Below are positions 2,890 through 48,579 of a DNA stretch of 64,000 nt, in pieces. Both the position numbers and the translations under genes were made by a program. Under the pieces are notes generated by a model, which did not search any database, was not told the DNA's origin, and was given only the letters and a program-made list of their open reading frames with translations. The DNA is from an uncultured delta proteobacterium (GTDB taxonomy: Bacteria; Desulfobacterota; Binatia; UBA9968). The first letter of the stretch is position 1; each line of letters opens with the position of its first letter. The stretch covers positions 22,976 to 86,975 of the forward strand of contig CAVSLC010000012.1 in assembly GCA_963728565.1 (NCBI GenBank), written 5' to 3'.

Positions 2890-4353
2890 TCAGTCGGCAG
2901 AAGCGACAGTAGCAACGCCAGAACTTCCAACGACGTCGTTCCAATGGCCGGTCATTAGCTCCGACATAACGATTTCGACGTTAGCCAGCGGCACCCGAAT
3001 TTGTTGCATTGTGTTACGGTCGCGGATGGTGACTTTTTCATCAGCAGCCGACTTACTATCGCCAACGGTCTGAACGTCTATCGTCACGCAAAACGGCGTG
3101 CCTACTTCATCCTGCCGCCGGTACAGCCGGCCTATGGAGGCGGTGTCGTCGTAGACAGCGTGCCAGCGTTTGCGCAGATCCAGCATGAGCTTTTTTGCGG
3201 TTTCTACGATGCGATCGTTTTTCTTCAATAGCGGCAATACCGCGGTTTTTATCGGCGCGAGTTCGGGATGAAATTTCAATACAACTCGCTTCTCCGATCT
3301 AACTTCCTCTTCCTGATAGGCATCGACCAAAAACGCCAGTGTCGCGCGGTCGGCGCCGGCGGAAGGTTCGATCACGTAGGGAACGATCTTCTGCTTGCTT
3401 TCTTCATCAAAGTACTCCAACGCTTTGCCGCTAAACTGCGCATGTTGTTTGAGATCGAAGTCGGTGCGGTTGGCGACGCCTTCCAATTCGCTCCAGCCCA
3501 TCGGGAATAGATACTCGATATCGGCAGTGCGCTTGGCATAATGCGCCAGCTCGTCCTTGTCGTGTTCGCGCAATCGCAGGTTGTCTTTGCGGATGCCGTA
3601 TTTCGGATACCAAGCAAAGCGTTCATCGAGCCATCTTTGATGCCATTCTTCATCGGTGCCGGGCATGACGAAAAACTCGATCTCCATCTGCTCGAATTCA
3701 CGGCTGCGAAAAGTGAAATTTCCCGGCGTGATCTCGTTGCGGAAGGACTTGCCGATCTGCGCGATACCAAAGGGCAGCTTCATGCGCATGGACTGAATAA
3801 CGTTATCGAAGTTGACGAAAATACCCTGAGCAGTTTCCGGCCGCAGGTAAGCCACCGCGGCGTCCTCCTCCACCGCACCCATGAAAGTCTTGAACATCAA
3901 ATTAAACTGGCGCGGTTCGGTGAGCTCGCCCTTGCCGCAAGCCGGGCACAGCGTGCGTCCGGCGCCGCAGTGTTTACAGGCCTCGCCAGGAGGCACGATA
4001 AACTTATTGCCTTTTGTCGCTGCGCAATAATGAACCCATTCCATCTCTTCGAGCTTGTCTGCACGAAATCGCTTTTTGCAGGCCCGACAATCCACCATCG
4101 GATCGGTGAAATGGTCGAGATGCCCGCTCGCCTGCCAAACCCTCGGATGCATAAGGATCGACGAATCCAACCCCACCATGTCCGGCCGCGACTGCACGCT
4201 GTCGCGCCACCACGCGGCCTTGACGTTATTCTTGAGCTCCACGCCCAGCGGCCCATAGTCCCAGCACGAACCGGTGCCGCCATAAATCTCACTCGATTGA
4301 AAAATAAAGCCGCGCCGCTTCGAGAGCGACACGATCTTGTCCATCTCTACCAT
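2890..4353 (-). CDS. glyQS: Glycine--tRNA ligase, homodimeric (alpha2) type
   Basis: [63 protein letters not shown] and a C-terminal anticodon-binding domain. Start set at the ATG of MVEMDK after AAGGCGG. Confidence 0.97.
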
Positions 4354-4386
4354 TAAACCGCCTTGGCTAAATTGAGAATAGAAATC

Positions 4387-4415
4387 AATGTAAAGGATGC
4401 GGCGGGCGGAGTCAA
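4387..4415 (-). promoter_or_regulatory. Putative sigma70 promoter of glyQS (TTGACT-17 bp-TACATT)
   Basis: Minus strand reads TTGACT ccgcccgccgcatcctt TACATT, ~35 nt upstream of the ATG. Confidence 0.6.
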
Positions 4416-4454
4416 AAAGGCAATTCGTCGCCGCAGCAAAGTTAACGCGCAAGA

Positions 4455-4529
4455 CTAACAGATTTCGCGCGATTGAAAAATAAAGCCTCGCCGCTGCGAG
4501 AGCGACACGATCTTGTCCAAATCTACCAT
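4455..4529 (-). CDS. 24-aa mini-ORF paralogous to the GlyRS N-terminus ([24 protein letters not shown]); truncated duplicate or leader peptide
   Basis: ATG at 4529, TAG at 4455-4457, same AAGGCGG RBS as glyQS. Aligns with [24 protein letters not shown]. Expression unproven. Confidence 0.45.
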
Positions 4530-4559
4530 TGAGCCGCCTTGGGTAGTTGAGAATACGTT

Positions 4560-4588
4560 AATCTAATGGATGCCATGGGCAGAGTCAA
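4560..4588 (-). promoter_or_regulatory. Second putative sigma70 promoter in the duplicated unit (TTGACT-17 bp-TAGATT)
   Basis: Minus strand reads TTGACT ctgcccatggcatccat TAGATT; the -35 and the spacing are kept while the spacer sequence has diverged. Confidence 0.55.
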
Positions 4589-5171
4589 AAAGGGAATCTA
4601 CGCCGCCGCAAAGTTAAGGCGCAAGACTGTCAAGCCGCTGCGTGGCATCGCCACTTTTGATTCAGAGGCGTATCCTCCCCATGAATGGTCGCAGCAGTGA
4701 TCACGCTCCAAAGCATCGTCAAACCGCAGCATGTCCTATGAGTATTGCCTGTGCGAATCGCCTGCGGCGGGCATGCCGAATCTGCGTGGGCGCCCGCCCC
4801 GACCGCCTCTCCCATCCGCTGCCTTGCCAGCCTGACCAACGATCCTGCTCGCCTCTGCGCCGCTTCAACCAGCAGATGAAGGCAGGCACTGCAGGGCGCG
4901 TCTACTTTTCGAAGAAATGCTGCTCGAGGTTTCGGCATATGCCGCGCTAGAACCGGTAACGAAAAAGATACGTACGGGTTTCAAAGTATGCGGTCCGAGA
5001 TGACCCAAAGTCGATTGTATATATCGGCCCTTGACCCGTGGTTACGAAACGTACTAAGTAGCTGCGGTCCCGCAACATATAATGTTGTGGATGGGAGCCG
5101 GAACGGGCCGCTGTTATTTTGATACTAGTCGCGTCATGGAACATTCAACGAGTCAGCCACAGGAGTTGCCA

Positions 5172-7844
5172 ATGATCAAGCTACCATTATCGCTGGCATT
5201 GTTCCTAGCTTTTCTGTTTGCAAGCTTTTCCCCCGTCATGGCTGCGCAACCGACGCCACAAACCAGAGATATGTTCCGGATGAAATCATCGTCAAGTTTC
5301 GCCCGGAAGTCGATGAAAGTCAAAAAGACCTTGCGCGTTTTCGTGTATTCGGAGCGCGCAAGAAGGCTTTCAAGGTACTCCGAAACGCCGAGGTGGTTAA
5401 ACTTGGCCGCGGCATAACGGTTGAAGAGGCAACTGAAATTTTGAGTAACAACCCTGATGTTTTGTACGCTGAGCCTAATTACATTGTACATACGACCGCT
5501 GTTCCAAATGAGACTCGTTTTGGCGAATTGTGGGGTCTTAACAATATAGGGCAATCGGGCGGCACGCCGGGCGCTGACATCGATGCAACCAGCGCCTGGA
5601 ACATCGCGACCGGTGACAGCAATGTTATAGTTGCAATTATTGATTCCGGAGTTGATTATAATCATCCGGACCTTTCTCCTAACATGTTCCGCAACACGGC
5701 CGATTGTAACAACAATGGTATCGACGATGACGCGAACGGCTATATCGATGATTGTTATGGTATCGATACCCAAAATAACGATTCAAATCCCATGGACGAT
5801 AACAATCACGGCTCGCATGTGGCAGGGACAATCGGCGCTGCGGGAAATAACGGCATCGGCGTTGTCGGAATCAACTGGAATGTAAAGATTATGGCGTGCA
5901 AATTCGTAAACGCCAGCGGTTCTGGAAGTACGGAAGCCGCCATCGATTGCTTGGAGTACGTCAGAATCATGAGAGATCGCGGCCTGAACATTGTCGCGAC
6001 GAATAATAGCTGGGGCGGAGGAGACTTCTCACAGGCGCTGATTGATGCCATCGAACTTCAGGGCCAAAGCGGGATTCTGTTTATTACCGCTGCCGGCAAT
6101 GGCAATTTCTTCGGATTGGGCTTGAACAATGACCAGACTCCTTTTTATCCCTGCAATACTTACTTGCCCAATGTTATCTGCGTCGCTGCAACAACAAGAA
6201 TCGACGGGCAGGCGGTGTTTTCAAACTATGGCCGTCGCAACGTTCATATCGGCGCCCCAGGCAGCGAGATTTTGAGCACCATGCGCAATGGTAACTACGG
6301 AATATCGAGCGGCACATCAATGGCCACTCCTCATGTCACCGGCGTCGCGGCACTACTAAAAGCGGCCGACCCGAGCTTCGACTGGATCGCAATTAAAAAC
6401 TTGATTCTGGCCGGCGGCGACAACGTCACTTCCATGGCGAACACCGTTACGCAAAAGCGCCTTAACGCTAACGGGGCGCTAACTTGTTCCGACTCGACAG
6501 TTCTTACAAGGGTCAGACCCATCGCAAACACGATCAATGGTGAGGTCGGCACTCCGATTGATTTATCCGCATTACACATCAACTGCGCGAACCCCAACGG
6601 CAATGTCGTCATTGATGTCAATTCAGGAAGTGAAACAGTAACTCTGACCGACGACGGCGTCGGCAACGACCAAATAGCGAATGATGGAATGTATTCAGCT
6701 CAATGGACTCCTTCGTCTCACGGCACCTTTGTCCTAACGTTTCCTGACGGCGACACCATCACAGTGACAATCGGAGAAGTCGATTCCATCACACCTAACC
6801 CGATCGATTTGGCTTCACCGCCGTCAAGCTTCACGATCACCGGCGGCGGCTTTGCCAACTTGGGCTTTGGTTTGCCGGTGGTTAACTTCTATGCATAGCA
6901 CGAGTACCACGTTCATCGCCCAGGCACGCGCTATTTCGATGAACTCCAATGGCACACTCAATCACCGTTCCTTATCCCACCAATGCTACCAGTATCTCCG
7001 GACCCTTACCCGGGCTGAGGGCGGGAACCATCACCGTAAAGGTGTTTAACCAGCACGCAAACACCGGATCTTCTCAGTGGACGCTGATCGGCAGCACAAC
7101 CCTAACCGTCAGTGATACACGGCCACCGCCTGGAGTTAGTTCCATCACTCCCAATCCCATCGACTTGGCTTCACCGCCGGCAAGCTTCACGATCACCGGC
7201 GGCGGTTTCGCCAACTTGGGCTATGGTCTGCCCGTAGCTAACTTCTATGCTGGGACGACCTTCATCGCCCAGGCACGCGCTATTTCGATCAACTCGAATG
7301 GCACATCAATCACCGTGCCTTATCCTACCAATGCTACCAGTATCTCAGGACCCCTGCCTGGGCTGAGGGCGGGAAACATCACCGTAAAGGTGTTCAACCA
7401 GCACGCAAACACCGGATCTTCTCAGTGGACGCTGATCGGCAGCACGACCCTAGCCGTCAATGATACACGGCCAGTGCCAGGAGTTGAGTTCCATCACTCC
7501 GAACCCCATCGATCTTGGCTTCACCGCCGGCAAGCTTCACGATCACCGGCGGCGGTTTCGCCAACTTGGGTTACGGGCTACCCGTAGCTAACTTCTACGC
7601 GGGGACGACCTTCATCGCCCAGGCACGCGCTATTTCGATGAACTCGAATGGCACATCAATCACCGTGTCTTATCCTACCAATGCTACCAGTATCTCAGGA
7701 CCTCTGCCTGGGCTGAGGGCGGGCAACATCACCGTAAAGGTGTTCAACCAGCAGGCAAACACCGGATCTTCTCAGTGGACGCTGATCGGCAGCACCACGC
7801 TGGCGGTCAACGATACGCGTCTACTGGCTAAGGGAGCGAAGTAA
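5172..7844 (+). CDS. Secreted S8 (subtilisin-like) serine peptidase with propeptide, choice-of-anchor-X-like motif and three C-terminal Ig/IPT-like repeats; broken by several frameshifts
   Basis: AGGAG RBS at 5161, then signal peptide MIKLPLSLALFLAFLFASFSPVMA and propeptide YVPDEIIVKF. Triad motifs IIDSG, HGSHVAG, GTSMATPHV; also LTDDGVGNDQIANDGMYS. Joins ORFs 5082-5417, 5393-6898, 6949-7587 and 7515-7844. Confidence 0.88.
6785..7820 (+). repeat. Three tandem ~350-bp intragenic repeats (6785-7140, 7141-7489, 7490-7820)
   Basis: Each unit encodes SITPNPIDLASPPxSFTITGGGFANLGxGLPV...SQWTLIGSTTLxVxDTR; differences are mostly synonymous. Confidence 0.95.
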
Positions 7845-8103
7845 ACAACATCGAAGCTATCCAGACTAGGCAATCGCTATTAAAAACGTTCTTGAAACGA
7901 CTCCATGCACGGGCAGCAAGGCGGAAGTCGGAAATTGCAGACGGTATTGGCTATATAATGATAGGGAGTAGGTGAACGTTGTTGGGGTAGGACTTAGAAA
8001 TCCAAGGCACCTGCCACTACGCACCCATTCTGCAAAGCATCTCTATAGGACTCTCTGTATTTGACTCATAGGTCAAAACCAATTGATGGGCGAGCTAATC
8101 TAT

Positions 8104-9633
8104 TCAACGTAGACGTTGATAAATCTTATAATCCCCGTACGATTTTATTAGATGGAATGCACCCGTGCTTAGTACGGCCTCATATAGCGGCCAAAGTTTG
8201 CGACGTGGACCGACTATAAGATATTCGGGATCTTGCGCTAACGGATCATACTCGATGGCTACTGGTTGACGAAAGATGTAACGCCGAATCAGCTGAATGT
8301 GAAGTTGATCAGGTGGGTAGTGATATGGCCTCTCCAAAAGGAAAAAAAGCTCCGGATCGTATGTTTCAATCAGCGCATCGGAGGATGTCTCGGTGTTGAG
8401 GAAATCTGATACCTGCAATACGGATGAATCCGCATTCGTGAAATAAGTGTAGTGAAGCATTCTTAGAGTCAAAGGTACAGATGCCGCCACGACAAGGAGA
8501 ACGAGAGTGGTCACAATGCCGCGCATTCTCAGCCAAGGGCCGCATGTACTAGAAGCGAGGGGACTACGCTGAGGACGTTGGGTTAAAGCGGACGTTAGAT
8601 TCACGAGCATGGCCGCCGTGAAAATACTGCCGATAACCGTAACTGGAAAAAGATAACGAAGCCAACCAGCGGAAAGCATGAGGAACCAGGCAAACCAAGT
8701 GGCCGCCAAAACGAGAAGGGAGAGTTGGACAATGTCTGTTTGATTCGATACAAGAAATTGTCTTTTATCTTTCATCAACCTCCATGCGACGTAACAAAGG
8801 CCGCCGACCGTTGGGATTCCAAAGAACACGGTGGATGATAACGCAAGCGCACGAGCCCGCGGTGCCGTGACCAGGGCGGTGACGTAATAAAGTCCTGGCA
8901 GCGGCGATAATCGGGTTGTTGCGCTGTCTAATAGAATCTGCTGTAGCCTGAGCATCGCGCGAGCCGACAAAAACGATGCACACAGTCCGACGGTGAGCAA
9001 CAATATGATCTTCCAGCGTCGCGTCAACACGGCTATGGCCAAGGGAACGAGTAATGAAGCGAGCCAAAAAGGAAACACCTGTAGTTTCGTGACTAGTGCA
9101 GCCCCCCAGAAGCACGCTGACAATGGTAGGGCGATCAGAGGGCGTTTTTGCGCCGACAAAAACATCGTATAGCCCGCCAGCAGGAAGAACAACGCAGGTA
9201 TTTCGCCAAGCACTTGTCTGCCCGCAAGTACAGGATGAATGTCGTGATGGAAAGGGGTAAACAGCAAGACCAGAAGAGCGGTGATCGCAACTCGGCGATC
9301 GTAAAGGTGCCGCGCTAGGTGGTATAACAGAGCCAGGGTTGCAAGTGTGAAGAGTACGCTAGGAATCCTTCCTTGAATTAGGCCCACGCCAAAGAAGCGA
9401 AAGCTCATCGCAACAGAGGCCGTCACCGGGAAAGCGGCCGCCAAGTCCGGAGGCGCTGGCTGTCCAAGCAAATACCTCCCATAATGTCCGTCGACAACCC
9501 AATTGCGAGCGACAGACAATGTCCACCCCTCGTCCCACCAAACCGGCGGGGCACTATCGAGATTCACCGTTGCTAGAGCAAGGACAAAGAATCCGAAGAA
9601 CCCTGCAGTCGCCCTACGCAAGTATAATCTCAT
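8104..9633 (-). CDS. GT-C fold membrane glycosyltransferase (ArnT/PMT, GT39/GT83-like)
   Basis: Acidic WWDEGW motif after the first TM, GRIPSVLF, LARHLYDRRVA, multiple TM helices and a C-terminal soluble domain. Confidence 0.78.
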   Translation of the reverse strand: MRLYLRRATAGFFGFFVLALATVNLDSAPPVWWDEGWTLSVARNWVVDGHYGRYLLGQPAPPDLAAAFPVTASVAMSFRFFGVGLIQGRIPSVLFTLATLALLYHLARHLYDRRVAITALLVLLFTPFHHDIHPVLAGRQVLGEIPALFFLLAGYTMFLSAQKRPLIALPLSACFWGAALVTKLQVFPFWLASLLVPLAIAVLTRRWKIILLLTVGLCASFLSARAMLRLQQILLDSATTRLSPLPGLYYVTALVTAPRARALALSSTVFFGIPTVGGLCYVAWRLMKDKRQFLVSNQTDIVQLSLLVLAATWFAWFLMLSAGWLRYLFPVTVIGSIFTAAMLVNLTSALTQRPQRSPLASSTCGPWLRMRGIVTTLVLLVVAASVPLTLRMLHYTYFTNADSSVLQVSDFLNTETSSDALIETYDPELFFLLERPYHYPPDQLHIQLIRRYIFRQPVAIEYDPLAQDPEYLIVGPRRKLWPLYEAVLSTGAFHLIKSYGDYKIYQRLR

Positions 9634-9661
9634 CTCGGTAGAAGGGGAAAACTGTGGTCGA

Positions 9662-10468
9662 TCAGGAAGATTTTCGCGCGAGAATCACGTATGCTCCGCA
9701 GGTCAACTCGTCGCGGTTATAATTGGCAAGTTCACACTCGATGGCGGGCGTCAAGAACTCTTCACCCTCACGCATTGCGCAATACTTTTTGATAATTTCA
9801 AAATGTTTGGAAAAGGTCTTGAGGAATTGGTCTTGACGCCACTCGTTCAAAGGCACGTGAAATGTTAAACGGCGTCTCCTCAAGTGATCCCAAGGCTCGA
9901 CACCACTTGGAATGTTGCGAAGAGGGGTCTCTGCCAAACTGATGTTATGGCCTCCTGATAAACTCGTAAATAGATGGACCAAGACCCAAGCCACGCCCCC
10001 GGGCCGTAAAACTCGATGCATTTCCGCAACGACACCAGGGACATCGTAAAAATGCTCGAAGGCAGCGATGGAGGTCACCAAATCTAAACCGTTGGACGCC
10101 AAAGGTAATTCGGCGACGGAGCCACAAATTAGAGAAGAATTGGAATCGCTCACGCTGATAGGGATCTTTCGAGCATACAGCCAACGGGCTAAGCGATAAC
10201 TTGTTTCTACTCGACTATGTTCAGCTCGATTGTTTATGTCGATCCCATACACCTTGTGGCCTGCCGCCTTTAACAACATGTATTGGGGTCGCAAGCGGCC
10301 ATTGGCAAGATCGAGGATTTTAAGCGTTGGGCAGCCGTTAAGAAAGGGAGCGATGTCTCTTTGACGCATCTCGAATAGCCATCGCTCATGTTTCTCGCGC
10401 TTTCCGTTCACGAGCTGCCACCCATATCGAAGCTGCTCGATGAAAGAGTTCGCGATGACGAAACGCAT
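9662..10468 (-). CDS. Class I SAM-dependent methyltransferase
   Basis: ILDLANG motif I variant, DLVTSIAAFEHF, EMHRVLRPGG. Start moved to MRFVIAN to avoid overlap with the upstream gene. Confidence 0.82.
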   Translation of the reverse strand: MRFVIANSFIEQLRYGWQLVNGKREKHERWLFEMRQRDIAPFLNGCPTLKILDLANGRLRPQYMLLKAAGHKVYGIDINNRAEHSRVETSYRLARWLYARKIPISVSDSNSSLICGSVAELPLASNGLDLVTSIAAFEHFYDVPGVVAEMHRVLRPGGVAWVLVHLFTSLSGGHNISLAETPLRNIPSGVEPWDHLRRRRLTFHVPLNEWRQDQFLKTFSKHFEIIKKYCAMREGEEFLTPAIECELANYNRDELTCGAYVILARKSS

Positions 10469-10475
10469 GTTTGAT

Positions 10476-11186
10476 TTAATCTTGACAAGTGACGGGTGTT
10501 GCCAAAACAAAAAGCTCGTCACCGCGTTTGTGAGAGTTCAGCATGAACAGAGAATAAATAATCAGCGATATCGCCTTGCGAACGGGGCCGAACTGTCCGG
10601 TCGTCCCTTTACTGTCCGTTAGATCCAAGAGGTCACGATAGAGCGGCGAGTAGAACGGAAACCCCCATTGCACAACGGAGATCGCTTTCAAACCGATTGA
10701 TTCAAGTTTCCTGACAAGATCTCCTGGTGCATAATTCCGGACGTGCCCAATCTGTTTCTCGAATGCGCGCATCCGTCCCTGTGGTGTCGAAACCAGCAGG
10801 TATTTGTTGGTCATTTTGCCAAGATTCTCCATTGCGGCAATATCGTCTGGAATGTGCTCTAAGACTTCGCTACAAACAACCAAATCGAATCTTGTATCGA
10901 GTGAAGTCTGGGCGATATCGAGAATCCGGAAATCCCCGTCGGGCATGCGCCGCCGCGCCAATTCGATCGCGGAAGACGAGACGTCCACACCCATCGGTTT
11001 GATGTGAGGGAATTCGGATTTCAATTCCGCCAGCAGCGAGCCTGCCCCACAACCCACATCCAGTACAGATTGAAACTTAAGGGAGCAAATCATCTCTTTG
11101 ATGATACGGTGTAAATGACGATGAAACGGGCCGTAGGTTTGTACATCGCCCCAAGTGGTTTTCCATATGGCTTCGTAATCGACCAC
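10476..11186 (-). CDS. Class I SAM-dependent methyltransferase
   Basis: VLDVGCGAG, FDLVVCSEVLEHI. Confidence 0.88.
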   Translation of the reverse strand: MVDYEAIWKTTWGDVQTYGPFHRHLHRIIKEMICSLKFQSVLDVGCGAGSLLAELKSEFPHIKPMGVDVSSSAIELARRRMPDGDFRILDIAQTSLDTRFDLVVCSEVLEHIPDDIAAMENLGKMTNKYLLVSTPQGRMRAFEKQIGHVRNYAPGDLVRKLESIGLKAISVVQWGFPFYSPLYRDLLDLTDSKGTTGQFGPVRKAISLIIYSLFMLNSHKRGDELFVLATPVTCQD

Positions 11187-11290
11187 GTCCAGTTAAGCCT
11201 CATTTGAGAGAAAAGCCTCGCAGCACGGGCTAGCATGACAATAGGCCGAACAACGGCCCAATAAATTCACGGAGGCGGAGATGGGAGAAT

Positions 11291-12496
11291 TCATTGTATG
11301 TCCTCACAAACCCGATCTTGTCGCGCCACCGACGTACATATGACGCCGCGAGCAATCTGGACGCATAAATCCAAATATCTTTGTGCCATACTTTCCCAAG
11401 AAAACTTGATCGCAATTTGTCGACTCGCCTGCCCCAACCGGTGACGCAATTCTCGATCTCCTGCCAACAAAGTTAGGTGTTCGGTTAGGGCTTGGACATT
11501 TGCCCAGGGCACAACAAACCCATTCACATTTTCGCGTACAAGTTCCGCCGTTCCGCCGGTTTCTGTAACAATCGCCGGCAAACCCGAGGCCATCGCTTCC
11601 AAAAGTGCAATCGACATCCCCTCATTCTGTGAAGGCAAAACAAATGCATCGGCTTCTCTATAAATCTGAGGCATCTTCTCGTTTGAGACAACGCCAACAA
11701 ACTCCACTTCTTCATCTACAAACAAGTCTTTGGCTAATTTCTTGAGAGAAGCCTCCTCGTCTCCCGTTCCAACCAAAGTCAACTTGATTTCTTGCTTCAA
11801 CTTGGGTCGCAAGTTCGCGAAAGCTCGAATAAGATAGGCCTGTCCCTTTCGCTCGATTAAGCGGCCCACAGAGAGGATATTGATCCTGTCACTCTCTGTT
11901 TGCTTTTCCGACGGAAAAAACAGCGTGATGTCAACGCCATTATGGACAATCGGGATGTTCGGTTTGGCTGTTGTATCATGTGCCAACCGACGATGATGAT
12001 CACTGATAGCTGTTACCACGGCCGCATGATGCCAAATATGTCGAATTAACGGTTTTAGAATTAAGTATAAATAAGTGTAGCGAGCTTCAAATCCCGGAAC
12101 ATCCGGCCCTTGCAAAGAAACCAAATAAGGCAATTTGTTGGTAGAATGCAGCGCATAGCTGATCGCCCCCGCGGGCACCGTGGAAAATGCAAAGCTCAAA
12201 GCAAAACGATGCTGCCGGAGGAGTTTTCGACTGTAATCGAAGCCACGCCAAGCATAAGTCAGCAGTTCGCGGTTACTGGCATGGTGGATGTTCTTATTAT
12301 CGACCGGAACTTTATATATAGTAATTCGCTCGCCAAAGCGTTCACTCTCAAAGGTGCTACGTGATCTAGAGGAAGTTACCAAATCGATCCAGAGGTTGGG
12401 CACGGTGTTGAAGAGTCTCAGGAGGTGATAGTTGACTACACCCGTACCGCCGCCCAACGGTGGAAACTCATTGTCAAGCATCAATATACGCATCAC
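11291..12496 (-). CDS. Glycosyltransferase family 4
   Basis: EFPPLGGG, SVGRLIERKG, PSQNEGMSIALLEAMASGLP (E-x7-E). Confidence 0.92.
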   Translation of the reverse strand: MMRILMLDNEFPPLGGGTGVVNYHLLRLFNTVPNLWIDLVTSSRSRSTFESERFGERITIYKVPVDNKNIHHASNRELLTYAWRGFDYSRKLLRQHRFALSFAFSTVPAGAISYALHSTNKLPYLVSLQGPDVPGFEARYTYLYLILKPLIRHIWHHAAVVTAISDHHRRLAHDTTAKPNIPIVHNGVDITLFFPSEKQTESDRINILSVGRLIERKGQAYLIRAFANLRPKLKQEIKLTLVGTGDEEASLKKLAKDLFVDEEVEFVGVVSNEKMPQIYREADAFVLPSQNEGMSIALLEAMASGLPAIVTETGGTAELVRENVNGFVVPWANVQALTEHLTLLAGDRELRHRLGQASRQIAIKFSWESMAQRYLDLCVQIARGVICTSVARQDRVCEDIQ

Positions 12497-13452
12497 TGCC
12501 GTCCGGTCATACGGCGCAAAATGTAAAGCGGCCGTCTTTTGGCCTCTTCAAATATGCGACCGACATATTCGCCAATGACGCCTAAAGTAATCAGTTGAAT
12601 CCCGGCAAGAAAAAATATGGATACGATAATACTGGCATACCCGGGCGGGTTTAGGCCATAGAGAAGTTTTTTTGTAAAGAAGAAAGCCGCCATGATTAGC
12701 GACAATAGGGACACGCTCAGGCCAAGCAGAGTGATGATGCGCAATGGCACATAGCTGAATGAGATCAATCCGTCCAAAGCCAGAAGCATTAACCGCTGGA
12801 TTGTATATTTCGAGCTCCCAGCGTGGCGCAGCTGGCGCTCAAAGGGTACGCCTACCTGGCGCAGCCCCACCCAGCTGCGAATGCCCCGTATGAAACGATT
12901 GCGCTCGGGCATGGTTTTGAGCAAATCCACGACCCGACGGTCCATTATACAAAAATCGCCGGCATCTAAAGGAATATCGATACTTGATACGTGGCGCAGC
13001 AAGCGATAGAACGCCGCGTAACTTGTCTTTTTGAACCAACCTTCTTTGCGCTGCGCACGCACCGCGTATACAACCTCATTGCCCTCGCGCCATTTGGCAA
13101 TGAAGTCGGGCAGCACTTCCGGGGGATCTTGCAGATCCGCGTCCATTACGGCAACAGCTCTCCCGCGCGCGAAATCGAGCCCGGCTGTGATCGCAATCTG
13201 ATGACCAAAGTTGCGTGCCAGACCAATTACCTGAATACGGTTATCCGATGCTTCCAGGTTGTTTAACATCTGCGGGCTTTCGTCGTTGCTACCGTCGTCC
13301 ACGAAAAGGATTTCGAATTCGATCTTTGCACCTTCCAGCACACTTACGAGTCGGTCATAGAGCGTGGGGATGTTTTCCTCTTCGTTGTAGATCGGAACGA
13401 CAACAGTCAATTCCGGCGATGACGCATTCTCAGCCACTAGGCCAAATTTCAT
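12493..13452 (-). CDS. GT2 polyprenyl-phosphate glycosyltransferase (GtrB/YkoT-like)
   Basis: VVVPIYNEEENI, FVDDGS, RNFGHQIAITAG, MDADLQDPP and two C-terminal TM helices. Start set at MKFGLV. Confidence 0.9.
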   Translation of the reverse strand: MKFGLVAENASSPELTVVVPIYNEEENIPTLYDRLVSVLEGAKIEFEILFVDDGSNDESPQMLNNLEASDNRIQVIGLARNFGHQIAITAGLDFARGRAVAVMDADLQDPPEVLPDFIAKWREGNEVVYAVRAQRKEGWFKKTSYAAFYRLLRHVSSIDIPLDAGDFCIMDRRVVDLLKTMPERNRFIRGIRSWVGLRQVGVPFERQLRHAGSSKYTIQRLMLLALDGLISFSYVPLRIITLLGLSVSLLSLIMAAFFFTKKLLYGLNPPGYASIIVSIFFLAGIQLITLGVIGEYVGRIFEEAKRRPLYILRRMTGRQ

Positions 13453-13692
13453 ACTGCCATATTTACGGTCTTGGTCGTCAAAAATGGCTAATGACGCGAT
13501 AGGCATCTGACCGGCAAGTGCTCGGCAAAAGCGCAACGCAGCTTCCGGATTATCGGTGGGAATCCGCGAAACCGACACTAGATCCGTTCGTATCTGTTCA
13601 CCAAGGCTGGGTGCGGCTTTGTTCACGAAGAATCTGGTAGACACAACAAAAGCTATACAGACCGGCATTTTAATGGGTATCCGGTTCTATGG

Positions 13693-15428
13693 CTAGCATA
13701 ATTTCCGATGACCTTCGCGCCTGAACCACGTCCATACTGAGCTATCGGTTAAGCACGGCAAGGAGTCAGACTGCGTCGAAACGGTGGTTATTGCCGGGGC
13801 GTTGATCTTTGATCTGGAGGGCGCGGTAAGGCATAGATTTTGTGCAATCCATCGCTGCTTTCGAAAACAAGCTCGGGTTCGACACTGGTACGACCGCAAT
13901 AGATTCGCGAACAACTCGGCGGCAGCGACCCTTTCGCTGTATCCTTCCAGCGGATTCACGACGAGAAACCGCACGCCAAGCTTGTTCAGGCTATCCCTGA
14001 TTTCCTCAACCGATCCGAGATCGGGCGTGGCGTTGCCGATAAGGATAGAAATAGGTTTCCGGACGGTGGATCCACGGTCTTACAGCCTTTCTTCCGGTGT
14101 AGAGATAGTACATCGGATCGTAGGCGGTCGCGAGAACGTCGTCGCTTCGCGTGTTCTGTTTGATCCAGGAAAAGGTCTCGCCGAAACCGGTCCATCCGTA
14201 CGATGCACGAAAGCCGTGCCCACAGGGCGAGATGATTCCTCGCGGTCGAGTTGGGTATAGCTCCAGAGCCATGCCGCTGTTAAAACCACAACAATGGCGA
14301 TAGGGATGCGGATTGCAAATGGAACTATCGCGGCAGACCAAGTGTTCCGTGGCGCATGGCCGGATGACGGCGGTAGCAGCTTGCGCTCCTTGGAATAACG
14401 AAAGAAGCACGACTGGGAACAGAGGCATCAGATAGCGCGCCGGGTGCCAGGGCCAAGACAGGATCAACACGGTGTAGAGCAAGCATGAAGCCGTTAAAAA
14501 AAACATTTTGCCGCCGCAGTGATGGACCAGAGCCCCCAGATCATCAGGGGATAGATCACGACTCTCAACTCAGGAAGAATATGAAGGAAGCATCATAGAA
14601 TCCACGGTCAGAGCCGAATATAGGAGATTGGCTCCAGATAATCTGAACCGCGAGCACCGGGATCGGAGCCCGCCAAAAAAAAGGCCGGACTTTCGTACGA
14701 TTGATAATAAGCAAGCAGCGGGTTCTCGACGGCGACTGAGCCGTGCATGGCCTGCCATAAGACCCAAGGGAGTATCAGGCAACCGACAACGACAACATAA
14801 AGGTAAAATTGTTTTCGTTGCCTACCGAGAAGCGCATAAGTTAAACCGGCGAGGATCAGCGCCGCGCCGGCGCTACGAAATAAAAAAGCGCTGCCGGCGC
14901 CGGCTGCCAGAAGCACAATCGATCGCGTGCGACTGGTAAAGCCGTTTGCTGGAATTGCGACAAGGTCAAACAAAACAGCGCGGCCGCCATGAACGGGATG
15001 TCGCTCAACGGATAACTGGTCCAGGAAAAAACAAACGCATTCGCCCCGACCAAAAAAACATAGAGAAGGGCATCCGCCTTTCCTCCCTCGGTGTTCTGTA
15101 CATAAAAGACATAGGCCAGCAGGAGAGACGCGAAGTAAGAAAACACTGTGACGAAATTCAGAAGCGAAATGTTACTGGGAAACTGAGGATTGAGACTCCA
15201 CGCCCACGAAAGTAGATACGAATATAAAAACGGGTACTTCGTCTGGTATGGTTCGCCGGGCAAACTAATGATTCGATATCCCTCGCCCTCGCTGAGCGCC
15301 TTTGCGACCACGGCATAAATTCCATCATCATGGAAAAGGCCGATAATGTTTGGCGCCGAGAAAAACGCCAAAGACGACAGACCTAGCGCAAGCAGAAGAA
15401 CCAGCGGCCATGCGCTTCGTAACTTCAT
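13693..15428 (-). pseudogene. Second GT-C-like multi-TM glycosyltransferase, fragmented by several frameshifts (real pseudogene or sequencing error)
   Basis: N-terminal FHDDGIYAVVAKALSEGEGYR...TKYP; consecutive fragments in ORFs 14856-15527, 14608-14973, 14006-14506 (ARYLMPL, DPMYYLYTGR) and 13693-13974. Confidence 0.65.
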
Positions 15429-15808
15429 CGATTGTGCTATGGCGGCGCCTCGATGAAGCGCAGCTGTTGGCTCGCTCGTATGTCGCGGAATGGGAGGACG
15501 AGGACGATCAAAGGTCTGATTGAGCATGCGATTTCCGGGTGGCGACTGGAAGGCAGTTTAAACCAGGTGCTTATTTCTCACCAGTGCTTTTTGATTTACG
15601 GCGCAGCGCTGTCAGGCCGGCAATTCTCCGCTGTGGATTCAAGACTCAACCGCGACCAGATTTATAGCTGAACATGCCTCGCATGTGTAAGGCGACTCCC
15701 CTGAAGGGCCGATGGGAAGGGTGGCAAAAGACAACTTTCTTCGTCGTCTGCGAAAGTAGCAGGCTACCGTGATCTGCCAGGCAAGAATGAGGGTGGGAAC
15801 TTGGTCAT

Positions 15809-16619
15809 CTACAAGCGCAGCACATCGTGCATCCCGTAAAGTCCAGGCTTTTGCCGGGCGAGCCACCGAGCGGCGCGGATAGCGCCGTGGGCGAAGGTGT
15901 CGCGGCTATGCGCGCGGTGGATGAACTCGAGGCGCTCGCCGATGCCACCGAAAATCACCGTATGCTCGCCGACGATGTCGCCGGCGCGAACGGAGAGAAG
16001 AGCGATCTCTTTTTTTGATCGTTCTCCGACAATCCCTTTGCGTCCATGAATACCAACTTTGTCCAAATCACGGCTCAGCGCTCCAGCGATGGCGCGGCCG
16101 AGCGCCAGGGCCGTACCGCTGGGCGCGTCCTTCTTGAACCGGTGGTGCGCCTCGACGATCTCGACGTCGTAATCGTCGCCGAGCATTCTTCGCGGCGGTG
16201 CCGAGCAGGCTCACAAGCACATTCACGCCCAGGCTGGTATTGGCCGACAAGAGAGCCGGCGTCCGGCGCGACAACCGTTTGATCTCCGCGGTTTGCCGAG
16301 GGTCAAACCCTGTTGTCCCGACGACAATGGGCACGGCTTTTTTCGCCGCTGCCCTGATATAAGTCAATGAAGCCTCGGGTCGAGTGAAATCGATGATGAC
16401 AGTTCCGGGTTTGAGGTAAGGCTCGATCTTATCGCTTACAGTAATGCCGAGATTGCCGGCGGCGGAAATTTCGCCGGCGTCTTTTCCCAGCCTCGGGCTA
16501 CCGGGTTTGTCGATGGCGGCAGCTAGCGCCGTTCCCGCGCTTTGCTGGATCGCGCGCACCACCGCTGTGCCCATACGGCCGCCCGCGCCGCAGACGATCA
16601 GGTTGAGATTTTTTGCCAT
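15809..16619 (-). CDS. dapB: 4-hydroxy-tetrahydrodipicolinate reductase (frameshift near 16190)
   Basis: GAGGRMG and VVGTTG in ORF 16068-16619; [15 protein letters not shown] and RAGDIVGEH in ORF 15809-16186. Confidence 0.93.
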
Positions 16620-18378: not shown

Positions 18379-18503
18379 CAGGCTGCGGAAAAAGAGTCAT
18401 ATGATGAGTTGCACTCCGTCGACTCGCTTCAACGTACTGAAGCGGACGCCTCAGCTCGTTGAACGTCACGCGCTTCGGCTCTGAGATCTTTTCGAACAGC
18501 CTG
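18379..18503. repeat. ~125-bp intergenic palindromic (MITE/REP-like) element, copy 1
   Basis: Imperfect terminal IRs caggctgcggaaaaaga / tcttttcgaacagcctg; homologous to 60917-61042. Confidence 0.7.
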
Positions 18504-21680: not shown

Positions 21681-22885
21681 TACGATCTCTTAGTTTTGCT
21701 CAGTTTCTGCAAGCGCAACCGTAGAGCGTTCAAGCGAATGAATCCTTCGGCGTCCGCCTGCTGATAAACGGTATCTTGTTCAAAAGTCGCCACTTGGGGA
21801 TCGTAGAGCGAAAAGTCGGATTTACGCCCGGCGACAACGACATTGCCCTTGTAAAGCTTCAACCGCGCTGTTCCGTTTACATTGCGCTGCGCCGCATCGA
21901 TTGCTCCCTGCAAGACCTCACGTTCCGGCGAGAACCAGTAACCGTAATAAATCATTTCAGCGTAGCGCGAAATCAAGGAATCTCTCAGCCGCATCACCTC
22001 GCGATCCATAGTGATAGACTCTAGCGCGCGATGAGCCGCATGAAGTATGGTCCCGCCAGGCGTCTCGTAAACGCCGCGCGACTTCATGCCGACATAGCGA
22101 TTCTCGACCAGATCGACGCGGCCGATACCATGCTTGGCGCCGAGATCGTTCAACCGCGCCAGAAGTTCAGCGGGAGACAATGTCTTGCCATTGATCGCAG
22201 TCGGATCGCCGCGCCGATAATCGATTTCAACATACTCGGCTCGATTGGGCGCCTTCTCCAACGGCCGGCACCAGACAAACATGTCTGGCGGCGGCTCTTT
22301 CCATGGATCCTCAAGAATGCCGCCCTCATAACTAATATGAAATAAATTTCGATCGGTGCTGTAGGGACGGGCTTTGGTAACCGGCACTGGAATGCCATGC
22401 TTGCGCGCGTAGGCGATCAAAGAGGTGCGTGAACTGAGACTCCAAAGCCGCCACGGCGCAATCACCTTGATGGCCGGCTTGAGCGCATAATAAGTCAATT
22501 CAAAACGCACCTGGTCATTGCCCTTACCGGTGGCGCCGTGCGACACCGCGTCGGCGCGCTCGGTTACGGCGACGTCGATCTGTGCCTTGGCGATGAGCGG
22601 TCGGGCGATGGAGGTGCCGAGCAGGTAGGAACCTTCGTAGATCGCGTTGCCGCGCAGCATCGGGAACACATAATTTTTCACAAACTCTTCGCGCAGATCG
22701 CCGATTACCGCTTTGCTTGCACCGGTGTCGATCGCCTTCCGTTTGACCGCCTGCAGGTCTTCCCCCTGTCCTAGGTCGGCGCAGAAAGCGATGACTTCGC
22801 AGCCATATTCTTCCTTAATCCAACGCAGAATAACCGATGTGTCTAATCCTCCCGAATAAGCCAGCACCACCTTCTTTACGTTCAT
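21677..22885 (-). CDS. argG: Argininosuccinate synthase
   Basis: [37 protein letters not shown]. Confidence 0.97.
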
Positions 22886-23884
22886 CTTTTCTTATTGGAA
22901 CCTTTGCTTCCTCTGGATTGATTTCCCATTTTCCTTGAACCTTCGAGCTTCTGAACGGTTGAACTTCTCGTGCCATTCAGCAACCAGACCATGATGGCTT
23001 TTTGCGCATGTAATCTGTTTTCAGCCTGATCGAAGGCAATGCACTGCGGGCTTTCTAAAACCTCGTCAGTGATTTCTTGACCGCGGTGGGCCGGTAAGCA
23101 GTGCATAACCACCGCATCTTTCTTGGCCATCGCCAGGACTCGGTGGTTCACCTGATATTCATGAAAAGCTTTGAGGCGGGTGGCCACGTCCCACTCCTGT
23201 CCCATGCTGGTCCAAACGTCGGTATAGACCGCATCGGCTCCGCGCAAAGCATCTTTAATGGAATGCGTCACCGTCACGTCAGCGCCGTTTCTTTTTACCC
23301 GAGCTTCAATCTCTCGGTTGGGCTCGTATCCTTTGGGACACGCCAGGGCGAATGAGAATGGGATCTTCTCGGCCGCCTCCATCCAGGAATGCACCATATT
23401 GTTGCCGTCGCCGATGAAGGTAATCTTAAGTCCTTTCAGCTTTCGCTTGTGTTCCAACAATGTAAGACAGTCGGCAAGGACCTGACATGGATGATAGAGG
23501 TCGGTCAGAGGCGTTGATCACCGGAACGGACGCGGCACGCGCCATTTCCTCCAGAGTTGCCTGCGCGAATGTGCGCACGACAATCATATCGACCCAGCGG
23601 CTCAGGCTGCGCGCGCAATCTTCTGGAGTTTCGCGGACTCCCATCTGTACTTCGGTGGGCGAGAGAAACACCGCATGGCCGCCGAGCTGAACCATCCCCG
23701 CCTCGAAAGTCACCCGCGTTCTCAGACTGGGTTTCTCAAATAACATGCCCAGCCCCTTGCCCTCGAGCAGGCGATGCACGACGCCCTGCTTCTGCTTCTG
23801 TTTTAGATCTTGCGCCAGTCGCAGAATCGATTCGAGCTCGTGGCGGCTCCAATCAGCGAAATTCAACAAATCTCGTTTACTCAT
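22882..23884 (-). CDS. argF: Ornithine carbamoyltransferase (frameshift near 23510)
   Basis: FEKPSLRTR in ORF 23426-23884; HPCQ across the shift; [17 protein letters not shown] and QAENRLH in ORF 22882-23460. Confidence 0.93.
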
Positions 23885-32669: not shown

Positions 32670-33401
32670 CTTCCGCGATTCGCAACGGACGCTTAGGCGG
32701 GAAGCCAGCAACTCTGCCGAAGTGAGTTCGGCAAGCACAACCTTCAGCAGCCTGGATATCGATTTATCGCTGCAAACTACCCCAGCGAGCCGCTCATGCA
32801 CCACTGCGCGGTGGTGCCAACCTTGTGAATCATCGTGATCCAGCGCGCGCTTTAAGGATGAGGACGGCATCTCCCGTCCCAGGCTAGACATGAGCTTGTA
32901 CAAAGCTTCACGGCTGCTCCATAAGCGATAGAATGCCGCAATCCGATCATCATCTGGTTGCTGCATCAGCCAAAGCTGCTCGTTAGGTTCAAATGACGCT
33001 TGGCTAAGAGCGACAATATCACGATCGGGATGGGTGACTTCTAGATCGAAGCCCAACATCACGTCGGTGCTGAGCGCGCAGCCAACCCAATCCCCACTGT
33101 GAGAGATGCTGAAATTCGGCGGTAAGGATTGTCCATCGGCAAAGAAAAGCTTTGGAGCGGATCCCACCCGGTCTATGACTGTGATGTCATGGACCGGCAC
33201 ATTCATCATTTTGGAAACCGCTAATCGAAGGAGCATTCGCCCAACCAGGAACTGCCGCTTACGCTGTTTCCGCGCAAATGTGGCGTATCGGTGGGCCTCG
33301 GACGCGGCGAGTCGCTGCTCGAAACCAGCGACAGCAAACTCAGTTACCCGTCGAATGTCGAGCAACCAGACGGTTGCGCAGCGGCTGTTTCGCTCATCCA
33401 T
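32592..33401 (-). CDS. Sfp-type 4'-phosphopantetheinyl transferase of the APE cluster
   Basis: NFSISHSG, LGFDLE, FYRLWSSREALYK; last gene of the ACP/KS operon. Confidence 0.85.
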   Translation of the reverse strand: MDERNSRCATVWLLDIRRVTEFAVAGFEQRLAASEAHRYATFARKQRKRQFLVGRMLLRLAVSKMMNVPVHDITVIDRVGSAPKLFFADGQSLPPNFSISHSGDWVGCALSTDVMLGFDLEVTHPDRDIVALSQASFEPNEQLWLMQQPDDDRIAAFYRLWSSREALYKLMSSLGREMPSSSLKRALDHDDSQGWHHRAVVHERLAGVVCSDKSISRLLKVVLAELTSAELLASRLSVRCESRKLVVTDIPQKNRVVVNVSAGFLLRFS

Positions 33402-33840
33402 CGGCAAGTTTTACGAAATCGCCTTTCAACGCCACGCCAGCAATGATTGCCCCCGCATGGCATTCGAACTCGGTCGCGCTCGACATTACTTTTTTGTTGT
33501 AATAGCTAACGATGTTGATGACCGCGTTTGCGCCCAGTTGCTGCGCGCGTGTTTGGAGCGCCACCATAGCTGAAAGGAAGGCCCAATTGCAGGCTTTCTC
33601 ATCGGATTTGCCAAACGCATTGGTCTTGCGATTGGATACATCGCTGCCTAAATTGGTTAAAACCTGCGGCGGCAATTGATCACCGAAGTAGAACTTCACT
33701 GAACCATCAAGCTTGTCCTGCGCGTCTTTAACCTCCATCGCAATCGCAATCGGCAGGAGATGTCTCGTGTCGCGCCCATGCGCGGGTAAACCGATTGCCA
33801 GACACAGAATCAAAACTGCCACCGATATCACATTTCTCAT
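33394..33840 (-). CDS. Secreted YbjQ-like protein commonly found at the end of APE clusters
   Basis: Signal peptide; SNRKTNAFGKSDEKACNWAFLSA, GANAVINI, ECHAG. Confidence 0.7.
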   Translation of the reverse strand: MRNVISVAVLILCLAIGLPAHGRDTRHLLPIAIAMEVKDAQDKLDGSVKFYFGDQLPPQVLTNLGSDVSNRKTNAFGKSDEKACNWAFLSAMVALQTRAQQLGANAVINIVSYYNKKVMSSATEFECHAGAIIAGVALKGDFVKLADG

Positions 33841-33880
33841 TTGCTTCTCCTTCGACTTTCGTCGCACGGCCACGTTCGCC

Positions 33881-35110
33881 TCAATCATACCTCTTGAAGA
33901 TCAACGAAGTATTAATACCGCCGAAGGCGAAATTGTTGGACATGACATATTCGCATTCGAGATGCCGGCCGGCGCCGACAATATAGTCGAGATCGGCACA
34001 GTGCGGATCGATCCGGGAAAGATTGATCGTCGGCGCAAACCACGCTGCGCGCATCATCTCGATGCTGATCCATGATTCCAAAGCGCCGCAAGCTCCGAGC
34101 GTGTGTCCCATGTAGCTTTTAAGAGAACTGATCGGCACCTGGCCGCCGAAAACTTGCCGCGTAGCTTGCGATTCCGCGATATCGCCGTGTTCGGTCGCAG
34201 TCCCGTGAGCGTTGACGTAACCGATAGACGATGGCGGGATACCGGCGTCAGCCAGCGCCAACTCCATCGCAATTTGCATAGTGCGCGCATTTGGCTGGGT
34301 GATGTGACTGCCATCGCTGTTGGTGCCGAAGCCGACCACTTCGGCAAAGATCTTAGCGCCGCGGGCGCGGGCATGTTCGAGATTTTCCAAAACCAAGCTG
34401 CCAGCGCCCTCGCCAAGGACAAGGCCATCGCGCTCCGCATCGAAAGGGCGCGGTGTCGAGTCGGCGGCTTCGTTGCGCGCGCTGGTGGCAAATAGAGTAT
34501 CAAAAACGGCTACCTCGGTGACGCACAGTTCTTCGGCACCGCCGGCAATCATCGCTAGCTGACGCCCGCTGCGAATGGTTTCATATGCGTACCCGATTCC
34601 TTGACTACCCGAGGTACAAGCGCTGGAGGTTGTGACGATCCGGCCCGTAATGCCCAAAAAAACCCCGAGATTTACCGGCGCGGTATGTCCCATCATTTTT
34701 ATGTAAGTCGTCGCATTGATGCCCTTGGTACTTTTTTCATCGATCATCTTGCCGAAATCGCAAATAGCTTTGGGGGTGCCGGCCGAGGAGCCATAGGCGA
34801 TGCCCAACTGACCGCTTTTTAACAGCGGGTCATCGATCAGCCCGGCATCCCGTAAAGCTAGTTCGCTGGCGCGGGTTGCCATCAAAGCTACTCTCCCCAT
34901 GCTGCGGGTTGCCTTGTTAGTGTAGCGTTCCGACAGCTCAAACGGCGCCGCCGGCGCGCCCAGCAACGTATTCAGACCATCGTAGTCGGACCACTCGGGC
35001 ATGCGCATGACGGCATTGCGATAGCTTCCCAAGCGCGTACGAATGCTGGCCCAGTGGTTGCCGATGGGACTGATGCCAGCCATGCCGGTGACCGCGACCC
35101 GTCGCCTCAT
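33881..35110 (-). CDS. Beta-ketoacyl-ACP synthase (ApeR-like)
   Basis: SSACTSG, NAHGTAT and GHTLGACG (Cys-His-His); NNFAFGG. Confidence 0.92.
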   Translation of the reverse strand: MRRRVAVTGMAGISPIGNHWASIRTRLGSYRNAVMRMPEWSDYDGLNTLLGAPAAPFELSERYTNKATRSMGRVALMATRASELALRDAGLIDDPLLKSGQLGIAYGSSAGTPKAICDFGKMIDEKSTKGINATTYIKMMGHTAPVNLGVFLGITGRIVTTSSACTSGSQGIGYAYETIRSGRQLAMIAGGAEELCVTEVAVFDTLFATSARNEAADSTPRPFDAERDGLVLGEGAGSLVLENLEHARARGAKIFAEVVGFGTNSDGSHITQPNARTMQIAMELALADAGIPPSSIGYVNAHGTATEHGDIAESQATRQVFGGQVPISSLKSYMGHTLGACGALESWISIEMMRAAWFAPTINLSRIDPHCADLDYIVGAGRHLECEYVMSNNFAFGGINTSLIFKRYD

Positions 35111-35832
35111 ACGAGCCCGCCATCGACCGAGATGACTTGGCGAGTGATGTACGCCGCCCCATCCGTAAGCAGGAAACTCACTGCCGCCGCGACCTCGTCG
35201 GGAGTGCCGGTTCGACCTGCGGGAATCAGTTTGAGTATTTCATCCACAGGCGCATGATCGATCATTTCCGTCTCAATCAGTCCCGGAGCGACACAGTTTA
35301 CGGTAATCTCGCGTTTTGCCAGCTCCAGCGCCAACGCTTTAGTCGCACCAATGATGCCGGCCTTCGCTGCGCTGTAATTCACTTGACCGCGATTGCCCAT
35401 CAACCCGGACGCCGACGCCAAGGTGACAATCCGCCCCGGCGCTCGTCGCCGCACCAACGGCATAATCAAGGGATTGAGCACATTATAAAACCCGTCGAGA
35501 TTTGTTCTGAGAACAACGTCCCAATCGTCTCCTGACATGGCGGGAAAAACACTGTCGCGAGCAACGCCGGCGTTACATACGACACCGTAGTAACAGCCAT
35601 GCCGCTCAACGTCCTCTTCCAGTGTTGCTGCGGCGGTGGCGCGATCGCCAATATCGAATTGCAAGACGCGAGCTTGGCGGCCGAGTGCGATAATGGATCG
35701 GCCTAATTCATCGGCCTCTTCGCGGCGCGCTCGGCAATGGGCCACGATGTCGTAACCATCCCGCGCGAGCCGGTAAGCGATGGCTTTTCCGATGCCGCGG
35801 CTGGAGCCGGTTACCAGGACGGTTTTATTCAT
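35107..35832 (-). CDS. 3-oxoacyl-ACP reductase (FabG/ApeQ-like)
   Basis: TGSSRGIG, CNAG, YSAAK. Start set at MNKTV. Confidence 0.92.
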   Translation of the reverse strand: MNKTVLVTGSSRGIGKAIAYRLARDGYDIVAHCRARREEADELGRSIIALGRQARVLQFDIGDRATAAATLEEDVERHGCYYGVVCNAGVARDSVFPAMSGDDWDVVLRTNLDGFYNVLNPLIMPLVRRRAPGRIVTLASASGLMGNRGQVNYSAAKAGIIGATKALALELAKREITVNCVAPGLIETEMIDHAPVDEILKLIPAGRTGTPDEVAAAVSFLLTDGAAYITRQVISVDGGLV

Positions 35833-36298: not shown

Positions 36299-36402
36299 GA
36301 GATCCGAACTATCGCATTGCTCTGCTAAGACATGTCACTGCTATGAATGGAAACCACATAGGGGTCTCGTCAAGATTAAGAATCTGATCAGGCGAGGTCA
36401 TC

Positions 36403-38136: not shown

Positions 38137-38138
38137 CG

Positions 38139-39360: not shown

Positions 39361-39385
39361 CGTTTCTCCCCTAAGCCAGCCAACC

Positions 39386-48302: not shown

Positions 48303-48305
48303 CTG

Positions 48306-48575: not shown

Positions 48576-48579
48576 TCCC

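Follow-up and report, generated by a model that had tools for sequence, protein, structure and literature searches.

Small segmental tandem duplications in bacterial genomes are known to leave behind truncated gene fragments, that is, partial-gene pseudogenes, and P1/P2 arrangements, in which tandem promoters stand ahead of one gene, are likewise a familiar architecture. Leader-peptide attenuation, of the pheST or trp type, is known for aminoacyl-tRNA synthetase and amino-acid operons, and glyQS is controlled by the T-box in Firmicutes. Here, we describe a locus that shares features with each of these systems. In a stretch of 64,000 nucleotides (the window) of contig CAVSLC010000012.1, from an uncultured member of the Desulfobacterota (assembly GCA_963728565.1), a unit of ~172 bases that comprises the promoter, the 5' untranslated region (UTR), the ribosome-binding site and the first ~24 codons of glyQS, the gene for a dimeric-type glycine--tRNA ligase (GlyRS), is present twice, head to tail, on the minus strand. 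The copy nearer to the gene (D, downstream) is continuous with glyQS, and the other (U, upstream) is a diverged duplicate. We consider the pair to be a genuine, fairly old partial tandem duplication, in which U is probably a decaying pseudo-start that contributes, passively, a further promoter and a short open reading frame (ORF) upstream of the gene, and we give this reading a probability of roughly 0.58. As an event, the duplicate is a fresh example of an already known kind.

The comparison with the described systems is instructive on both sides. As in partial-gene pseudogenes, the copies are adjacent and head to tail, one with the functional gene and the other truncated and changed at constrained residues; unlike in these, the glyQS unit includes a whole promoter, a ribosome-binding site and a start codon, and transcription and translation of the relic probably continue. 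Transient amplification is a poorer match, because U and D are already ~17% diverged and the event is therefore old. Two sigma-70-like sites that point in the same direction, 173 nt apart and ahead of one gene, recall tandem P1/P2 promoters, whereas the second (predicted) site is here a paralogous copy of the first that drags a truncated coding start along with it. The locus also resembles leader-peptide attenuation and T-box systems in having a short ORF or structured leader upstream of a synthetase gene. However, the 24-codon ORF in U (the mini-ORF) is not enriched in glycine codons and is not followed by a terminator/antiterminator pair, a full predicted promoter lies between it and glyQS, and the glyQS upstream region, unlike T-box leaders, has no T-box match in Rfam.

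Geometry and expression signals of the two copies

A head-to-tail repeat of ~175 bp had been described in the initial annotation of this DNA, and its reality as a feature of the sequence is confirmed by direct reading and by three independent computations. A blastn comparison of the region with the whole window aligns U and D at 83.0% identity over 171 columns (E 3e-44); self-comparison of the whole window recovers the pair (E 5e-42) among only four repeat matches in 64 kb; and a repeat finder reports three matching segments, D1 (84 nt, 88%), D2 (42 nt, 81%) and D3 (38 nt, 82%), at spacings of 172-176. The two copies are separated by a gap of just 5 bases, with no unrelated sequence between them, which is the geometry of a tandem duplication, and blastn finds no third copy of the unit anywhere in the 64-kb window. 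Tandem Repeats Finder reported nothing for the U/D region, probably because there are just two copies and these have diverged.

The expression signals that the initial annotation had read in U, namely a TTGACT hexamer with 17-bp spacing to a -10 box, an AAGGCGG ribosome-binding motif, an ATG and an open frame, are all present, with the addition that they lie on the minus strand. Its two translations, of the 24-codon peptide and of the glyQS start, match ours letter for letter, and each of the coding changes that it listed (GAG>GAA, ATT>ATC, CGC>CGA, E>D and M>L) is found. A promoter scan of positions 4000-5500 returns exactly two sigma-70-like sites, one per copy, against a mean of 0.9 in shuffled sequence; both have the same orientation, lie upstream of glyQS and are pattern matches only (Table 1). 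The extended motif TTTTTGACTC-N14-16-TTAnATT occurs twice in the window, both times at the U and D promoters, and 0 times in each of 100 shuffles. Because the same motif precedes glyQS at the orthologous site of a related genome (L001, positions 5938-5967), the promoter of D is taken to be the native one. From the intact motifs it is plausible that U acts as a passive second promoter. The mini-ORF stops 101 nt ahead of the glyQS ATG, in a frame that differs from that of glyQS, and its peptide is 82.6% identical to the GlyRS N-terminus over 23 residues (tblastn).

Two further observations concern the native start. The glyQS frame is open for 33 codons 5' of the ATG, back to an in-frame TTG at 4452 (2890-4452), so that automatic gene callers might extend the protein to 520 aa, with a spurious N-terminal part encoded across the D promoter. 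A small hairpin, GGCGACGAATTGCC, lies at 4419-4432, and the TTTTT after it extends into the -35 box of the native promoter. As a pattern match only, this hairpin might weakly insulate against transcription coming from upstream, and the scan did not report its counterpart in U.

Table 1. Coordinates of the features at and around the duplicated glyQS start (window positions; -, minus strand).
Feature	Position	Strand	Description	Evidence
U copy	4462-4628	-	Upstream, diverged duplicate of promoter, 5' UTR and first ~24 codons	blastn and alignments
D copy	4286-4456	-	Downstream; native promoter, 5' UTR and first codons, continuous with glyQS	repeat search, blastn, alignment
U promoter-like site	4560-4588	-	TTGACT 4588-4583, 17 nt, TAGATT 4565-4560	promoter scan, 9/12 matches
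D promoter-like site	4387-4415	-	TTGACT 4415-4410, 17 nt, TACATT 4392-4387	promoter scan, 9/12 matches
Ribosome-binding motif of mini-ORF	4534-4540	-	AAGGCGG, 4 nt before ATG, 7/7 identical to D	direct reading
Ribosome-binding motif of glyQS	4358-4364	-	AAGGCGG, 4 nt before ATG	direct reading
Mini-ORF	4455-4529	-	24 codons and TAG (4457-4455)	ORF reading, translation
glyQS	2890-4353	-	Dimeric-type glycine--tRNA ligase, 487 aa; ATG 4353-4351, stop ends 2890	NCBIfam NF003211, 662.6 bits; Pfam tRNA-synt_2b and HGTP_anticodon
Hairpin in glyQS codons 7-18	4310-4334	-	10-bp GC-rich hairpin, then T-run; -16.0 kcal/mol, z -2.65; terminator-like by pattern only	
Hairpin in mini-ORF	4489-4507	-	Weakened copy of hairpin and T-run; -11.2 kcal/mol	
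11.2-kb stretch	4629-15809	.	No counterpart between dapB and glyQS in L001/L002	synteny, Pfam
dapB	15810-16619	-	In two frames; directly precedes glyQS in L001/L002	TIGR00036 profile 2-147 and 150-269 in two ORFs; alignment; synteny

Relatives and genomic context

For comparison we used the best 80 of at least 597 confirmed glyQS loci from one genome scan, and closer relatives may exist. The nearest loci among the matches listed are two metagenome-assembled genomes, L001 and L002, to which the GlyRS of the window is 81% and 83% identical, respectively, followed by genomes labelled Rokubacteria at 72-75% GlyRS identity. The comparison of glyQS upstream regions that the initial annotation had suggested gives no duplicate: a second N-terminal copy of glyQS is found in 0 of the 80 relatives, 77 of which are covered for at least 300 nt upstream, and thus only in the window (1 of 81). 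Two other second matches in relatives were dismissed as chance (E 0.2-0.3).

In L001 the gene order is argH-lysA-dapF-dapA-dapB-glyQS-ABC transporter and in L002 it is dapA-dapB-glyQS; in both, dapB adjoins glyQS and the glyQS start unit is present as a single copy. The window has the same order except for the 11.2 kb that separate dapB from glyQS, a stretch (the island) whose G+C content is 0.48-0.52, as against 0.54-0.58 in the flanks. It encodes an S8 protease on the plus strand and, on the minus strand, a PMT_2-like glycosyltransferase, two methyltransferases, GT4 and GT2 glycosyltransferases and PMT-like fragments. U sits at the glyQS-side edge of the island, and the earlier siting of the repeat at an island edge thus holds relative to L001 and L002. 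This adjacency does not by itself prove a mechanistic link. The ancestral dapB-glyQS intergenic region is only ~130 nt long (in L001), of which the repeat unit covers ~104 nt, so that DNA inserted anywhere between dapB and the promoter of glyQS would land beside the unit.

Pattern of change in the two copies

U and D have several derived states in common relative to L001 and L002, namely the TCG codon of Ser11, GTA, CTC and AAGGCGG, and Ser11 is itself rare (Ser in 4 of 79 relatives). These shared states place the duplication within this lineage or derive it from a very close relative. Within the 24 codons the copies differ at nine sites. At eight of them D retains the state of L001, and those changes are accordingly assigned to the U lineage; at the ninth, the third base of codon 3, U, D and L001 have three different states. 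Three of the U changes, at invariant or nearly invariant residues, lie outside the natural variation of GlyRS, namely S21R (R in 0/79), Y24C (0/80) and the replacement of Gly25 (Gly in 79/80) by a stop, while E3D, M4L and K12Q lie within the variation of the 80 sequences. The nine differences comprise 5 non-synonymous and 4 synonymous changes, and the ratio of non-synonymous to synonymous rates (dN/dS) over the 24 codons, a measure that the initial annotation had proposed to compute across relatives, is 0.30 between U and D, which is not different from the neutral value of 1 (p 0.10), and rises to 0.86 when codons 1-20 are taken alone. Between D and L001, which are true orthologues, 1.5 non-synonymous and 6.5 synonymous changes give a dN/dS of 0.04.

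The differences are unevenly placed, with 8 in the 15 bases of codons 21-25 and 4 in the 60 bases of codons 1-20, which are thus 93% identical. In the non-coding part, a careful global alignment yields 82 identical positions of 104, with changes on both lineages, and the most diverged part of the unit is its middle, the 5' UTR, which also contains the indels. Non-motif non-coding divergence between U and D is ~25%, as against a raw synonymous difference of ~45% to L001. Half of the former gives 12.4% per lineage; the 12 changes in the 75 coding bases of U fit this rate, and 4 changes in the 60 bases of codons 1-20 are not significantly low (p 0.12). On these figures, the pattern of change in U appears compatible with neutral decay.

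A probable decaying partial tandem duplicate

Our preferred reading of the locus runs as follows. About 172 bases, that is, almost the whole ancestral dapB-glyQS intergenic region together with the first ~24 glyQS codons, would have been copied head to tail. D stayed joined to the gene and would have remained under GlyRS constraint, whereas U became a truncated pseudo-start and presumably drifted. The copying may have occurred in place, through slippage or unequal exchange, or through an illegitimate end-join on the arrival of the 11.2-kb protease/glycosyltransferase stretch upstream, and the end-join would make U the terminal part of DNA acquired from a close relative; in-place duplication and a donor-derived end are not told apart, because both predict the same geometry. 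Homology-facilitated illegitimate recombination is a conceivable route, although the duplications described for it, in the portion of the source available (PMC3240628), flank an integrated plasmid and are thus not a direct precedent for U and D; we take this route as an option for the origin only.

As for the present state of the locus, we infer from the motifs that U supplies a second promoter of the sigma-70 type 173 nt upstream of the native one, which would probably leave glyQS with two promoters in tandem. Transcripts that start at the upstream one would carry the 24-codon ORF with its good ribosome-binding site, and this ORF would be translated and the ribosomes released 101 nt before the glyQS ATG. 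The mini-ORF peptide itself probably has no role, and U as a whole is presumably neutral.

Several points weigh against this reading. For a neutral tandem repeat to reach ~20% divergence, recombination must have failed to delete it over all that time. Between the copies, 18 of 19 positions in the hexamers and ribosome-binding motif are identical, compared with 64 of 85 other non-coding positions (p 0.069), and in a MAFFT alignment in which the ATG is counted too, the contrast is 21/22 versus 58/84 (p 0.012), a value that is partly due to misalignment of the 5' UTR. Moreover, in the -10 box and beside the -35 box it is U that has the state of L001 and D that has changed. Together these values give a weak, non-significant hint of some constraint on the expression signals of U, for motifs that were chosen after both copies had been seen. 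Furthermore, frame breaks in dapB and argF show that the sequence of the window is not error-free, and the nearest relatives among the matches listed are only 81-83% identical in GlyRS.

Weighing the alternatives

The initial annotation had also raised the possibility that the second promoter and the mini-ORF form a leader that regulates GlyRS, and the folding and family searches bear on this directly. Of the 24 residues of the mini-ORF peptide, 1 is Gly. The transcript predicted from the U promoter (4553-4330) shows no attenuator fold, with a folding energy of -60.8 kcal/mol as against -61.1 kcal/mol in shuffles (z 0.08). A search of 3900-5500 with Rfam models, including the T-box, at E up to 1 returned only a weak small-RNA match (18.5 bits, against a gathering score of 44 bits), and at gathering thresholds the whole window has 0 matches. 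One structure deserved closer inspection, namely the hairpin with T-run in glyQS codons 7-18, of which the weakened copy inside the mini-ORF is the only terminator-like hairpin of U; the weakening is due to the R14 change CGC>CGA. The same stem is present in L001 (~6020-6045) and L002 (~2387-2412), at -15.6 kcal/mol each, and its stability exceeds that of synonymous recodings by an unusual margin in the window (z -3.25), in L002 (-2.91) and in L001 (-2.73). Across the 80 loci, z falls below -2 in 10 and has a median of 0.03. There is no covariation in the 80 sequences (69.1% paired versus 67.9% in shuffles, with 57 of 500 shuffles reaching the observed score), and the conserved residues VSL and KRR account for most of the complementarity. 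In view of the median z and the lack of covariation, we rejected the hairpin as a conserved attenuator.

These results frame the view that U is a selected regulatory module, kept as a second promoter, perhaps once the insertion had deprived glyQS of read-through from dapB, with a translated mini-ORF and its hairpin/U-run tuning the upstream transcripts that reach glyQS. Such a module could account for hexamers, spacing, ribosome-binding motif, ATG and open frame that are all intact amid non-coding sequence that is ~25% diverged, for ancestral promoter states kept in U and lost in D, for the high identity of the first 20 codons, and for the survival of the repeat for long enough to diverge. Nevertheless, we regard it as decidedly unlikely, since the conservation tests are non-significant with the better alignment (p 0.069 and 0.12, and p 0.10 for dN/dS), the mini-ORF has a single Gly codon, no alternative-structure signal emerges, the hairpin is weakened in U and lacks covariation support, and none of the 80 relatives has the duplicate; the literature that turned up on glyQS leaders concerns, judging by its listing, the T-box, TRAP or genome description. 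The leader peptide proposed by the initial annotation is thus not borne out by glycine content, dN/dS, folding, Rfam or relatives. A more specific version, in which U is a domesticated paralogous leader whose 24-codon decoy start, hairpin and U-run would end untranslated transcripts early, so that upstream transcription reaching glyQS would depend on ribosome loading, is very improbable. Assembly artefact is an alternative of another kind and, although unlikely, it has concrete arguments in its favour: two contig ends that overlap by ~170 bases, from two related populations or with error-rich read ends, might have been too different to merge and have been joined end to end. One copy ends where the other begins, with a 5-base gap; the differences are concentrated at the U end beside the junction (8/15 bases in codons 21-25 versus 4/60 in codons 1-20); the frame breaks in dapB, argF, a WcaI-like glycosyltransferase gene and the N-terminus of the S8 protease suggest draft quality; and false duplication at joins is a documented assembly error, in the vertebrate assemblies treated in the part of the source at hand (PMC9516828). 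However, the region contains no Ns, the copies have no long exact word in common at the junction that would prompt an assembler to make the join, divergence is greatest in the middle of the unit and not at its ends alone, and this is the sole repeat of its kind in 64 kb. Furthermore, changes at invariant or nearly invariant GlyRS residues, and a stop, are not expected of a live allele from another strain.

The remaining alternative, also raised by the initial annotation, is that U is the attachment-site scar of a site-specific integrative element that brought a replacement glyQS 5' end. Genomic islands that target dusA offer the model: according to the part of the account available to us, they supply a new 5' end, with the displaced 5' end at the far island boundary and an integrase at the edge (PMC4482086). 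The glyQS locus is alike in having a duplicated 5' end with its promoter and an inserted stretch upstream of a housekeeping gene, and a promoter and gene 5' end at the edge of an 11.2-kb stretch of lower G+C content that relatives lack would suit such an event. The likeness ends there, for the dusA copies, in the same account, flank an island with an integrase, whereas the glyQS copies are adjacent, on one side, with neither an integrase nor attachment repeats. No direct repeats flank 4629-15809 (comparison of the two borders yields at best 11 nt, E 0.15), the unit is not present a third time, and no integrase, recombinase or transposase family is matched in the 77 stop-to-stop frames of at least 60 aa across 4560-15900, 72 of which were scanned directly, while the other 5 lie within frames covered by the Pfam scan. 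The window also has no tRNA gene. We therefore rejected the integration scar on adjacency, copy number, border repeats, mobility genes and tRNA, and consider it largely refuted and extremely improbable.

Other features of the window

The frame breaks mentioned above are spread over the window. Compared with its L001 and L002 counterparts, dapB contains a single additional A near 16185. The argF profile (22885-23884) is matched as 4-136 and 145-305 in two ORFs, a WcaI-like glycosyltransferase gene (62018-63301) has a frame change, and the N-terminus of the S8 protease changes frame as well (5082-5417 versus 5129-6895). Split conserved genes of this sort reflect either indel errors in the sequence or pseudogenes, and the fact that two biosynthetic genes are broken argues for sequence errors.

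Three tandem copies of a ~356-base unit, 85-91% identical, lie at 6775-7819, within the C-terminal part of the S8 protease gene and immediately beyond it, and encode ~118-residue domains with the motif ITPNPIDLASPP...FTITGGGFANLG, for which Pfam gives no family at significance. Two copies of an intergenic sequence of ~125 bases, 74% identical, lie between lysA and dapF (18380-18503) and across the start and upstream region of a geranylgeranyl-reductase-like gene (60919-61042). The pair has no Rfam match and may represent either a small repeat element or an RNA not yet described. Finally, a long minus-strand cluster at ~33400-50350 resembles, by its NCBIfam names, aryl-polyene/flexirubin-type biosynthesis; it includes two beta-ketoacyl-ACP synthases, a FabG2-like reductase, an aromatic ammonia-lyase, a LolA-like protein, an RND-type exporter, a thioesterase, acyltransferases, an adenylating ligase and a halogenase-like flavoprotein.

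Implications

For annotation, the consequences are immediate: no gene should be annotated for the 24-codon ORF, and the glyQS start should be placed at 4353 and not at the TTG at 4452. If U were a selected leader after all, the locus would illustrate one way in which leader peptides originate, for which the present data give no significant support; and if it had been domesticated in the stronger sense, a synthetase leader would have been born from duplication of the gene's own start, a route that is not described in the literature as listed. On the reading that we prefer, one partial duplication that carries a promoter, a ribosome-binding site and a start codon creates, in a single step, a second promoter and an upstream ORF before an essential gene. 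The locus is therefore mostly a caution and a small evolutionary example, in which such promoter-plus-ORF duplicates can be seen as raw material for leader evolution.

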